This document shows positions 17,780 to 21,565 of a DNA stretch of 64,000 nucleotides, one piece after another. The notes beneath the pieces were generated by a model. That model searched no databases and had not been told where the DNA came from. It saw nothing but the letters and a program-made list of their open reading frames with translations. The translations under genes were made by a program, and so were the position numbers. How positions within the stretch are numbered: the first letter of the stretch is position 1; each line of letters opens with the position of its first letter. The stretch lies in the NCBI RefSeq assembly GCF_058153355.1, contig NZ_CM177019.1; one strand, given 5' to 3'.

Positions 17780-17840
17780 TGCTCTGATGCAGTCAGTTTG
17801 TCGGGTAGCAGCGATTCATTACTGTCTCGCCGCCCCCTAA

Positions 17841-17874
17841 GAACGGTACGTGCGAGTTTCCCCGCATACCGCTC
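17841..17874 (-). ncRNA. Group II intron domain V (catalytic hairpin)
   Basis: Minus-strand sequence GAGCGGTATGCGGGGAAACTCGCACGTACCGTTC: 10-bp lower stem with AGC triad, 2-nt bulge, GAAA tetraloop. Confidence 0.75.
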
Positions 17875-17880
17875 AAGCCT

Positions 17881-19623
17881 TTATAAGCCTCCACCTTGTG
17901 GGAGACCAGCGTCATTACTATGTAGTTGTCGATGGCAGTTGGGATGGAGTAGGACTAAATTGCTCACATCATCGCTACCGCCAAGAGATTTCTTGAGCAA
18001 ATGATGAACATTCCATCCTGTATCGCGATTAATCGGTTGCTCACATAAAGGGCAGCGCGATCCTTGCCTTTTCCATATAGCGAGAATCCTTTTCTGCCCC
18101 TGTTGGGATTTCTTCCATGAGTAGTCCAGCCTTCTTTCGAAGTATGTTTCCCACTCGGGATCATATGGATTTGCCGTTCCCTTTATTTTTATATAGCGAT
18201 TAATATGGATGTCGCTGGCCCGGGACAGAACATATTTCCTACCCTCCGGATCGACTCCATAAAATCGACCATGACACATTTTTATTGTCGTGTGGTACTT
18301 TCGGAAGATCCATCTCCGGCCTTTGCCGGGATGTCTCCTTCTGCACCACTGCCAGATTTTGCGCCAGATTTGGTTGTCGACATAGTTAAATGTCTCTGCC
18401 GATGCTACATGTTGGTGATAGTTTGCCCACCCGGTGATGATTGGATTAAGCAGATTTATTAGCACCCATGCAGGAACCGTTCGGTTACCTTCAATAGTCT
18501 CTCTGATCTTGCTAAGAAATTGTTTAACGTTTTTCTTGGCTGGTCTGATTATGAGTTTTCTACCGAAGCGTCGGACGTGCTGCCCAAGGAAATCAAATCC
18601 GTCAGTAATGTGAGTGATGACCGTTTTCTCTTCGGATAACGTCAGCCCTCTTTCTGCAAGAAATGATTTCACCAACGGAAGAACATTCTCCTCCAGAAGT
18701 TCTTTCGACTTTCCGGAAATGATGAAATCATCAGCATACCGGACGAAGTGAACCTGATGTTTCCTGAATGTTTTTGAGCGTTTCGGACCAAAGCGATTTT
18801 GCAGCAGTCTTTCCAGTCCATCCAGGGCCATGTTTGCCAGAACTGGAGATATGATTCCTCCCTGGGGTGTACCCGAGAGAGTTTTGCTGAATATGCTTTT
18901 TTCGATGATCCCGGCTTTCAACCAATTACGGAGTATTTGCTTGTCCATAGGAATATTTTCAAGCAGCCACTCGTGGCTAATGTGTTCAAAGCATCCTTTA
19001 ATATCGCCTTCCAGAACCCATTTCGAGGCGTTCCGGGAACTATACATATTACATACCTGTTGAATGGCGTCAGCCGTACATCGCGCTGGTCTGAAACCAT
19101 AACTGTTGTGATCTGCATTAGTTTCCGATACAGGCTCCAATCCCAGCAGATGCAGGGCCTGCATTGCCCTGTCAAGCATGACGGGGATTCCTAATGGTCT
19201 TTTCTTGCCATTAGATTTGGGTATAAAAACTCTTTTTAGCGGTAGGGGCTTGTACCCTTTTCGCCTGAGTTTGAATATCGCTTCCCATTTTGATTCTGGA
19301 GTACTCCAGATTTGACCATCAACTCCGGGGGTTTTACGCCCGCTATTTTCCGTAACTCGTTTCACCGCCAGTGCTCTGGCGCTGAATGAGCGAACCAGCA
19401 ATCGTTGCAATCTACCGACTGTACGCCATTGCTGGTTACATGCCGCCTTTGCGATTCTTGTCTGTATGGTTTTAACGTGTTGATGGCATTTCTTCCAGTT
19501 AATGGAATGCCAACCTTTTCCGTTGATGACCGCAGTTACATTGTTAGATGTAATTTTCATACATGTCATCCAAAGAAACCTTCGCAGATGTTTCGCAATT
19601 AAAGACCAGATGGAAGTCAGCAC
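17881..19623 (-). CDS. Group II intron-encoded protein (reverse transcriptase / maturase / HNH endonuclease)
   Basis: 580-aa ORF with RT motifs (TPGVDG, RPLGIP, YGFRPARC, GTPQGGIISPVLANMAL, YADDFII, GFDFLG), X domain (GWANYHQH) and C-terminal HNH (CPLCEQ...HHLLKKSLGG...HPNCHRQLH). True start may be an internal Met (19569 or 19560). Confidence 0.85.
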   Translation of the reverse strand: MLTSIWSLIAKHLRRFLWMTCMKITSNNVTAVINGKGWHSINWKKCHQHVKTIQTRIAKAACNQQWRTVGRLQRLLVRSFSARALAVKRVTENSGRKTPGVDGQIWSTPESKWEAIFKLRRKGYKPLPLKRVFIPKSNGKKRPLGIPVMLDRAMQALHLLGLEPVSETNADHNSYGFRPARCTADAIQQVCNMYSSRNASKWVLEGDIKGCFEHISHEWLLENIPMDKQILRNWLKAGIIEKSIFSKTLSGTPQGGIISPVLANMALDGLERLLQNRFGPKRSKTFRKHQVHFVRYADDFIISGKSKELLEENVLPLVKSFLAERGLTLSEEKTVITHITDGFDFLGQHVRRFGRKLIIRPAKKNVKQFLSKIRETIEGNRTVPAWVLINLLNPIITGWANYHQHVASAETFNYVDNQIWRKIWQWCRRRHPGKGRRWIFRKYHTTIKMCHGRFYGVDPEGRKYVLSRASDIHINRYIKIKGTANPYDPEWETYFERRLDYSWKKSQQGQKRILAIWKRQGSRCPLCEQPINRDTGWNVHHLLKKSLGGSDDVSNLVLLHPNCHRQLHSNDAGLPQGGGL

Positions 19624-20160
19624 GGTTTCCCGTTAAGGCAAATATTGAACCTCTATCCGCACGATTACAGTCCGGCTTTCGCTTTTTCCATCCTCCTTTA
19701 CCCGCATTCTCATCAGTTTGCCTTACGGTGCCCCTGCCACTAGGGCGAGAATTCGGGCTTACCAAGTTCCGACCAACATACAAAGAACGGGTTAGGTTCT
19801 GTCTATCCGCCGGGGGAGTTATTGTCCATGTATTCCCACTACGAACAGGAATAGCCTTACCCCTTACCTTTTGGTGCAAGCCTATCAGCATCTTTGGCTC
19901 GTTCTCTGTTACGACGTTTAACGACAGTTCACTATGTTAACCATACCGCCCAGCCTAGCGCTCTCGCCGCATGATGCTTGTAGCGATCAGGTTTTCTCAC
20001 GATTAACTGAAGCAATATTTGCTAAGCTACATTGTCCCAAGGGCTTCAGACAGAGCCGTTACCAGCTTTGCCTGCCTCAGTAGGCTACAACTAATGGAAT
20101 AGTTGGTTTTATATAAATAATTTATCAAAACAATATGTTGGACGACTTCTTGTCGCACTC

Positions 20161-20194
20161 GTAGGCCAGATAAGGCGTTCACGCCGCATCTGGC
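20161..20194 (-). repeat. REP (repetitive extragenic palindrome) element
   Basis: Minus strand GCCAGATGCGGCGTGAACGCCTTATCTGGCCTAC matches E. coli REP consensus ending GGCCTAC. Confidence 0.6.
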
Positions 20195-20221
20195 ATAAAC
20201 GCCTGAAACGGCGCTAATGAC

Positions 20222-21565
20222 TTAAATCACCCCCTGCGCCAGCATCGCATCGGCAACCTTCACAAAACCGGCAATGTTCGCGCCCTGCACGTAGTTGGTT
20301 TGCTCACCTTCACCACCATGCTCAACACAGGCATGGTGGATATCCAGCATGATGTGATGCAAACGTGCGTCAACTTTCTCGGCTTTCCAGCCCAGGCGCG
20401 CAGCGTTTTGCGCCATTTCCAGGCCGGATGTAGCTACGCCACCAGCATTAGCCGCTTTACCCGGTGCAAACAGTACGCCTGCCTGCTGGAACAGTTCAGT
20501 CGCTTCGATGGTGGTCGGCATATTTGCCCCTTCGGCGACGGCTTTAACGCCATTGGCGATAAGCTGATGCGCGGCGTCTACATCCAGTTCGTTCTGGGTG
20601 GCGCAAGGCAGGGCGATATCAACCGGTACAGACCACGGCTGTTGGCCTTCGAGATAGACCAGGCCAAATTCTTTGGCGTAATCTGCCACTCGACCATCGC
20701 GGCTGGCTTTGATTTCGATAAGACGTGCCAGTTTCTCTTTAGTGAATCCGCTTTCATCAACGACAGTGCCACTGGAATCTGACGCAGTAATCACACGGGC
20801 ACCAAATTCCATCGCTTTTTCGATAGCGTACTGAGCGACGTTGCCGGAGCCAGAAACGGAAACGCGCATCCCTTCAAAACCCATACCGTGGCGTTTTAGC
20901 ATTGCTTCTGTGAAATAAACCAGACCGTAGCCGGTTGCTTCCGGGCGAATAAGACTGCCGCCAAAAGAAAGCCCCTTACCGGTGAAGACGCAGGCGGTAT
21001 TGTTGGAGAGCTTTTTCATCATCCCCGCCATAAAGCCGACTTCACGACCACCAACGCCGATATCGCCCGCCGGAACGTCGGTATCTGCGCCCAGGTGGCG
21101 ATACAGTTCAGTCATTAGCGCCTGGCAGAACCGCATCACTTCGCCTTCGCTTTTCCCTTTCGGGTCGAAATCGCTGCCGCCTTTACCACCGCCCATTGGC
21201 AGAGTTGTCAGGGCATTTTTGAAGGTTTGTTCAAAGCCGAGGAATTTGAGAATGGAGAGGTTTACCGACGGATGGAAGCGCATACCACCTTTGTACGGGC
21301 CGATGGCGGAGCTGAACTGCACGCGCCATGCACGGTTGACCTGCACCTGGTTGCGATCGTCAACCCATACCACGCGAAACTGGATCACGCGCTCCGGCTC
21401 AACCAAGCGCTCCAGTAATGACATTTGGCGATATTTTGGATTTTGTTCAAGAAAAGGCCAGAGTGTGGTCATTACTTCACGAACGGCTTGCGCGAACTCG
21501 GTTTGATTCGGGTCGCGCTTTTGGACATGGTTGAGGAATGACTCCAGAGAATATGTCTGATCCAT
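20222..21565 (-). CDS. gdhA: NADP-specific glutamate dehydrogenase
   Basis: 447 aa, MDQTYSLESFLNHVQKRDP, catalytic-lysine region FLGFEQTFKNALTTLPMGGGKGGSDFDPKG. Confidence 0.95.
   Translation of the reverse strand: MDQTYSLESFLNHVQKRDPNQTEFAQAVREVMTTLWPFLEQNPKYRQMSLLERLVEPERVIQFRVVWVDDRNQVQVNRAWRVQFSSAIGPYKGGMRFHPSVNLSILKFLGFEQTFKNALTTLPMGGGKGGSDFDPKGKSEGEVMRFCQALMTELYRHLGADTDVPAGDIGVGGREVGFMAGMMKKLSNNTACVFTGKGLSFGGSLIRPEATGYGLVYFTEAMLKRHGMGFEGMRVSVSGSGNVAQYAIEKAMEFGARVITASDSSGTVVDESGFTKEKLARLIEIKASRDGRVADYAKEFGLVYLEGQQPWSVPVDIALPCATQNELDVDAAHQLIANGVKAVAEGANMPTTIEATELFQQAGVLFAPGKAANAGGVATSGLEMAQNAARLGWKAEKVDARLHHIMLDIHHACVEHGGEGEQTNYVQGANIAGFVKVADAMLAQGVI

Follow-up and report, generated by a model that had tools for sequence, protein, structure and literature searches.

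A group II intron between topB and gdhA

The DNA analysed here is a stretch of 64,000 nucleotides (the window) from contig NZ_CM177019.1 of assembly GCF_058153355.1, in which a group II intron separates the convergent genes topB and gdhA and directly follows a repetitive extragenic palindromic (REP) element. The topB gene (15824-17779, plus strand) is intact on translation and encodes 651 aa, its stop codon lying at 17777-17779. The gdhA open reading frame (ORF; 20222-21565, minus strand) is on the same strand as the intron, and its stop codon (20222-20224) precedes the 5' end of the intron by 63 nt. The interval from stop codon to stop codon is 2,442 nt, 2,359 nt of which are intron. This complete element was delimited on the minus strand, from 20158 to 17800, by Rfam matches, by empty sites in relatives and by plasmid copies. 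The Rfam models RF02012 (domains D1-D4; 112.5 bits) and RF00029 (D5/D6; 65.5 bits) match the minus strand at 19959-20106 and 17800-17876, respectively. The intron starts at 20158 with GUGCGAC, the 5' junction following the pattern NNNN/GTGCGACAAGAAGTCG (a slash marks the splice junction or insertion point throughout), and ends at 17800 with ...CUACCCGAC. A 5' GUGYG (here GUGCG), a domain V and a domain VI with a bulged A are present.

The REP, GCCAGATGCGGCGTGAACGCCTTATCTGGCCTAC, was found on the minus strand at 20161-20194 as an exact match (0 mismatches), and only GA (20160-20159) stands between it and the intron. On the other side, the 3' exon starts with the 20 nt that separate the intron from the topB stop codon (17780-17799, minus strand), its first base, the A at 17799, being the putative intron-binding site (IBS) 3, and runs antisense into topB; the last base of the intron is 21 nt beyond this stop codon. 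The initial annotation had proposed a 5' end 2 nt from the REP and a 3' end close to topB, with an antisense 3' exon, and both ends proved exact. No gene is disrupted by the insertion. The GdhA protein is unchanged, being identical to the common GdhA found in most E. coli, and TopB is also unchanged, the exact protein being present in relatives devoid of the intron. Outside the topB-gdhA locus, the window is 99.5% identical to E. coli strain EC42405.

An intact ORF located in domain IV, at 17881-19560 on the minus strand, codes for an intron-encoded protein (IEP) of 559 aa. The reverse transcriptase (RT), maturase (X) and HNH domains were recognized by Pfam (RVT_N, RVT_1, GIIM and HNH, all with E <= 8e-10); the YADD motif is present and the HNH domain covers residues 503-548. 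The nearest solved protein is the 6ME0 maturase/RT, which is matched over its full length with E = 2.4e-187. This structure is that of Th.e.I3/T.el4h, a IIB1 intron with a chloroplast-like-1 (CL1) RT (PMC8643678). Judged from these similarities, the intron is of the IIB1/CL1 type, with an IEP that carries an endonuclease (En+). The chromosomal copy keeps the full 559-aa IEP. The closest plasmid copy (CP057208.1, L001, 99.6% identical) has a C-to-T change at L001:4761 (intron position 2261) by which the IEP is truncated to 554 aa. The ORF is intact and copies of the intron at three or more sites differ by 0-1 nt, so that the element may currently be active in splicing and retromobility.

Empty sites and the absence of ynjI

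Relatives of the locus were collected by an exact look-up of the TopB protein, which gave 24 contigs. In L018-L021, whose TopB is identical, the site is empty and reads ...CAGTCAGTTT/TCGTAGGCCAG... or, over a longer distance, ...GATGCAGTCAGTTT/TCGTAGGCCAGATAAGG..., which corresponds base for base to the two window flanks joined together. The topB-gdhA spacer is then 83 nt long, contains no ynjI and has no bases duplicated or missing. An alignment with MG1655 and other E. coli genomes had been suggested in the initial annotation as a check of its boundaries, and these stand. In L025, obtained by the same look-up, the intron is present at the same position.

According to the initial annotation, K-12 carries the membrane protein gene ynjI between gdhA and topB, and the intron would here occupy almost all of the ynjI space. 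The absence of ynjI was borne out by tblastn analysis of the whole window with a K-12-type YnjI (best E = 0.66). The idea that the intron had taken over its space was not, the intron-free relatives sharing the 83-nt spacer without ynjI. The two genes topB and gdhA are adjacent in 1,515 of the 5,426 complete E. coli genomes (~28%); a window-type spacer at >=98% identity was found in 18 of these and the B2/F-type spacer in the remainder, and ynjI separates topB from gdhA in most other genomes sampled. No chromosomal copy of the intron was detected in the 5,426 complete genomes. Because the intron-free relatives with identical TopB already lack ynjI, the loss of this gene preceded the arrival of the intron. 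The absence of ynjI is an older polymorphism that is common in E. coli and has nothing to do with the intron, which is itself a recent gain at the topB-gdhA locus.

A segment of 15 nt at 20194-20208, CATAAACGCCTGAAA, is identical to the end of a K-12-type ynjI (L006:1950-1964), which it covers from 2 nt before the stop codon to 10 nt after it. The match is syntenic, next to gdhA, and weak on a window-wide scale (E = 0.24); it hints at a possible vestige of an ancient ynjI deletion. The topB tail and the spacer exist in at least three haplotypes: a K-12 type with a TopB of 653 aa and ynjI present, a B2/F type with a TopB of 651 aa and a 76-nt spacer that contains a degenerate REP and no ynjI, and the window type with a TopB of 651 aa and an 83-nt spacer with the REP. 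The ynjI indel is linked to a differing topB 3' end. An alignment of these three types of spacer gave no clear history for ynjI.

Native homing sites in plasmid hok and srnB genes

The full-length relatives of the intron are located on plasmids. Copies at 97-99.6% identity are found on IncF plasmids of E. coli and E. albertii, and copies at 77-80% identity on plasmids of Salmonella, Citrobacter and Enterobacter. Those examined (L001-L004, L027, L028 and the metagenome contigs L069-L072) are all inserted in hok or srnB, in sense orientation and three codons before the stop. The srnB-type site (L001 and L002) reads ...GTAACTCTGGCCTACGA/AGCACGTAAGTAA, and the hok-type site (L003, L004, L027, L028 and the metagenome contigs L069-L072) reads ...GCTTTCATGGCTTACGA/ATCCGGTAAGTAG, the joined exons encoding ...AAFMAYE/SGK followed by the stop. 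On this basis, the intron family homes at the conserved codons ...A-Y-E/ near the 3' end of Hok-family toxin genes, mainly on IncF plasmids. The coding sequence annotated as Hok at intron-bearing loci runs 34 nt into the intron. Literature searches, within the searchable library, returned no paper on a hok- or srnB-homing intron or on a REP-associated group II intron insertion; a paper on plasmids notes that a putative intron follows ycjA in F33 plasmids.

Recognition of the chromosomal target

The exon-binding sites (EBS) were located by natural covariation after alignment of domain I from eight copies. EBS1, UCGUAG (intron 315-320; 19839-19844, minus strand), pairs with IBS1 CUACGA, with covariation between its last base and position -6 of the exon. 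The motif is UCGUAG in the srnB-type and window copies and UCGUAA in the hok-type copies, with C or U as partner: a last base G faces an exon C in the window, L001, L002, L028 and L029, an A faces a U in L003, L004, L026, L069 and L070, and L027 has a G.U pair. EBS2, CAGAG (intron 251-255; 19904-19908, minus strand), has IBS2 (-13 to -9 in the exon) as its partner; CAGAG is associated with CUCUG at the srnB-type sites and CAUGA with UCAUG at the hok-type sites. The two types of site are thus distinguished by four compensatory pair changes, one in EBS1 and three in EBS2. Another candidate for EBS2, (A)GCCA at intron 260-264 pairing with -10 to -7, was ruled out, this motif being invariant without covariation.

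The 5' exon core of the window target is located at 20159-20171 on the minus strand and consists of IBS2 ATCTG (20171-20167), G-8 and C-7 (20166-20165) and IBS1 CTACGA (20164-20159). The 5' exon ends with ...CCTTATCTGGCCTACGA and the 3' exon begins with A. Since this site is identical from -12 to +1 (TCTGGCCTACGA/A) to the plasmid srnB site of L001 and L002, the position of the insertion is not a matter of chance. EBS1 and IBS1 pair at 6/6 positions, and EBS2 and IBS2 at 4/5 with a G x A mismatch at -13; one IBS2 mismatch is also tolerated at the natural hok sites L069 and L070. All sites have G-8 and C-7, and +1 is A at each of those for which the 3' junction was obtained.

IBS2 and most of IBS1 are supplied by the 3' arm and the GTAG-type tail of the REP. 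This element is an imperfect palindrome of ~35 nt that is extragenic (between convergent genes) and multicopy, the identical 34-mer being found elsewhere in E. coli genomes (H40) and related REPs near rsmC and in the ynjI-less B2/F-type spacer. The window REP has the variant form ATCTGGCC, where the common form is ATCCGGCC, and the T found at -10 in the variant is needed for an A-U pair of EBS2-IBS2. The intron landed downstream of gdhA because the REP tail and the next three bases (TCTGGCCTAC plus GA/A) reproduce the srnB target from -12 to +1.

Insertion at a second REP tail and at other sites

A copy differing by 1 nt and encoding an identical IEP is present in L029 (SRR31800506), in the tail of another chromosomal REP, located between the leu-tRNA cluster and rsmC. 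It is inserted at CTTATCTGGCCTACGA/A. The empty counterpart is present in complete genomes and reads GCGTCTTATCTGGCCTACGA/AGGGC in E. coli KE55 (L031:578-600). Comparison of L029 with L031 reveals a precise insertion at the splice junction without any target-site duplication, as at the window locus. The two REP sites have 17 nt in common, CTTATCTGGCCTACGAA, and 12 of these match srnB. A scan of ~100,000 species-representative genomes with this 17-mer gave 37 matches, ~12 of them in Enterobacterales, with 0-2 per Escherichia genome. Since the overall number is roughly the chance expectation, such REP pseudo-sites are rare rather than abundant.

A hok-type intron was also found at two further non-hok sites, on plasmid CP057032.1 (L026:1456-1500; ...GGTCATGGCTTTCGA/ACAATG) and on a metagenome contig (L073:1953-1997; ...GTTGATGGCTTACGA/). 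Both sites keep TGGCTTWCGA with one IBS mismatch each. Elsewhere in the window, at 9412-9452, an inverted pair CTGGCCTAC...GTAGGCCAG was noticed, with no REP body between its halves. The plus-strand copy of this pair resembles the target but is unoccupied; it reads TGGCCTACGA/T, has a T in place of the A at +1 and matches IBS2 at only 3/5 positions.

Transcriptional context of the insertion

A terminator-like hairpin, GCCCGCC-N9-GGCGGGC followed by T7, was found on the gdhA strand at 17732-17761 (minus strand), antisense in the 3' coding end of topB. It is the sole terminator-like site on this strand within 17500-21900. Because it lies downstream of the insertion point, the intron should be located in the gdhA 3' untranslated region (UTR) and would be co-transcribed with gdhA, from the gdhA promoter. 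Splicing would then restore the original 3' UTR, with the ligated junction ...CUGGCCUACGA/AAACUGAC. With this hairpin placed within the final codons of topB, which is convergent, gdhA and topB overlap at the transcript level. A match to the ES036 (CssrF) small RNA was also obtained with Rfam at 40528-40570 on the minus strand (42.9 bits, the gathering score being 37.6), and this match is unrelated to the intron.

Origin of the chromosomal copy

These data lead us to conclude, with good confidence, that a plasmid-borne En+ IIB1/CL1 intron inserted ectopically at the REP tail downstream of gdhA, where the sequence mimics its srnB target. The event is an ordinary off-target jump and not a new mode of target choice. 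The intron RNA would recognize the site via EBS1-IBS1 (6/6), EBS2-IBS2 (4/5) and the A at +1, would reverse-splice into the gdhA-sense strand and would then be copied into DNA, leaving no target duplication. Reverse splicing followed by target-primed reverse transcription (TPRT) is thus the probable route of insertion. The GC skew of the window is positive on the plus strand, and the direction of replication was placed from it with the K-12 map. The targeted strand would then be the leading-strand template, a situation which fits En-dependent TPRT without proving it.

The initial annotation had compared this location with those of structure-targeting group II introns. In such a mechanism, similar to that of class C (IIC) introns, the REP hairpin would be recognized as a terminator-like stem-loop and the intron inserted just 3' of it. 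The REP stem does end at -7, leaving IBS1 as a single-stranded tail in a way that resembles IIC targets, and a REP tail was used in both of the independent chromosomal insertions. However, the features of class C introns, i.e. the lack of EBS2, an IEP devoid of endonuclease and a stem-loop generally upstream of the sites, were all missing. The intron is of the En+ IIB1/CL1 type and has a covarying EBS2, and IIC introns have neither an En domain nor EBS2 (PMC8643678). In the predicted REP hairpin, the 3' arm (-14 to -7) covers IBS2 and only IBS1 is left in the single-stranded tail; the hairpin would compete with EBS2 pairing and not aid it. Moreover, no comparable hairpin ending at -7 was found at the native srnB and hok sites or at the ectopic L026 site, the fold energies being no better than those of shuffled sequences, so that an upstream stem-loop is encountered only at the REP sites. 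These two sites share 17 nt of sequence, 12 of them matching srnB, and identity with the srnB target from -12 to +1 explains the window site. Recognition of the hairpin is therefore improbable.

Two other scenarios are less probable still. The intron could be ancestral at this locus and precisely lost from the relatives, or its insertion could itself have deleted ynjI, a view encouraged by the K-12 ynjI space being here almost all intron and by the 15 nt at 20194-20208 that equal the K-12-type ynjI stop region. Intron-free relatives with identical TopB nevertheless have the same 83-nt spacer without ynjI, and none of the 1,515 of 5,426 genomes with adjacent topB and gdhA has a chromosomal intron. 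The nesting seen here also disfavours this scenario, and a divergence of only 1 nt between this intron and those inserted elsewhere suggests that it was gained very recently; we consider the scenario most unlikely. The same holds for recombination, homologous or illegitimate, with a hok/srnB segment of a plasmid in place of RNA-mediated insertion. The 12-nt identity between the chromosome and the srnB site at the 5' junction could be invoked in its favour, but no flanking hok or srnB sequence extends beyond -12 and +1, the junctions are exactly at the splice sites without chromosomal bases duplicated or deleted, and the pattern is equally precise at the second locus near rsmC.

Several observations weigh against the proposed ectopic insertion by srnB mimicry or are not accounted for by it. 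The window does not include the donor plasmid. EBS3 was not located, minimum-free-energy folding of domain I being unreliable, and IBS3 is invariant and offers no covariation. A candidate EBS2a (window 19910, intron 249, 2 nt upstream of EBS2), proposed by analogy with EcI5, is A in the window- and srnB-type copies and G in the hok-type copies; its pairing with -14 is inconsistent across sites, since it would pair with T-14 at both REP sites and mismatch A-14 at srnB. Beyond the A at +1 and the G at +6, the 3' exons of the sites share little, which bears on cleavage by the En domain. The leading-strand-template placement would make no difference to En-dependent TPRT and would disfavour lagging-strand priming. 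Finally, both chromosomal insertions are at REP tails, which leaves room for a role of the REP hairpin on single-stranded DNA.

A broader and speculative proposal, which we hold to be rather unlikely, is that the rare REP subtype (...CTTATCTGGCCTAC then GAA) provides dispersed chromosomal landing pads for a hok-homing intron family of IncF plasmids and, separately, that the hok/srnB toxin or its fold-back control depends on splicing. If this were true, the landing pads would let the intron escape from plasmids to the chromosome, into 3' UTRs where it does no harm, and the position three codons before the stop could tie toxin production, or the fold-back control by the hok mRNA 3' end, to splicing. 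Insertion by srnB mimicry, for its part, accounts for an odd intron location by ordinary base-pairing, on the evidence of exact empty sites and natural covariation. It indicates that a REP tail can fortuitously reproduce the target in a plasmid gene and so give rise to intron copies in the chromosome. The EBS1/EBS2/IBS code could be used for predicting or retargeting intron insertions, and the Hok-family-homing introns found on plasmids of Escherichia, Salmonella, Citrobacter and Enterobacter may merit a separate study.

Comparison with known systems

The insertion sequences IS1397 and ISKpn1 are reported to recognize the REP unit itself and to insert within it. The likeness with the window intron is that of a mobile element in or beside a REP, whereas the intron uses only a rare variant of the REP tail, with GAA after it, which matches its plasmid gene target. 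Class C introns of Enterobacterales such as Di.ze.I1 and So.gl.I1 insert after terminator hairpins (PMC3522654). The window site is like theirs in having a stem-loop directly upstream of IBS1; in contrast to IIC introns, which have neither EBS2 nor an En domain, the window intron has both, and its hok, srnB and L026 sites are devoid of hairpin.

The IEP has the same architecture (RVT_N, RT, X, HNH) as those of EcI5 from the E. coli plasmid pO157 and of Th.e.I3/T.el4h (PDB 6ME0/6MEC). In IIB1 introns such as EcI5, IBS1 occupies -6 to -1 and is separated by 2 nt from IBS2, which occupies -13 to -9, and IBS3 is the base at +1 (PMC8643678); the target of the window intron has the same layout, with the A at +1 as putative IBS3. 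The two introns differ at the nucleotide level (the plasmid search gave no pO157 match) and the homing site is here hok/srnB. The positions recognized by the EcI5 protein, C-18, C-17, A-15 and T+5, are not conserved among the sites of the window intron.

The closest parallel in mechanism is the ectopic retrotransposition of Ll.LtrB and RmInt1, which is likewise precise and free of duplication and retains most of the EBS-IBS pairing, whereas the distal flanks are not kept. The EBS2-IBS2 interaction is reportedly dispensable when Ll.LtrB retrotransposes into single-stranded DNA (PMC8643678). Compared with the Ll.LtrB and RmInt1 events, EBS2-IBS2 is here largely kept (4/5) and the mimic comes from a REP repeat. 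Off-target insertion by IBS mimicry being known for Ll.LtrB, RmInt1 and others, the mechanism is not new; the new particulars are the REP tail as mimic, hok and srnB as native homing sites, and the EBS/IBS code.

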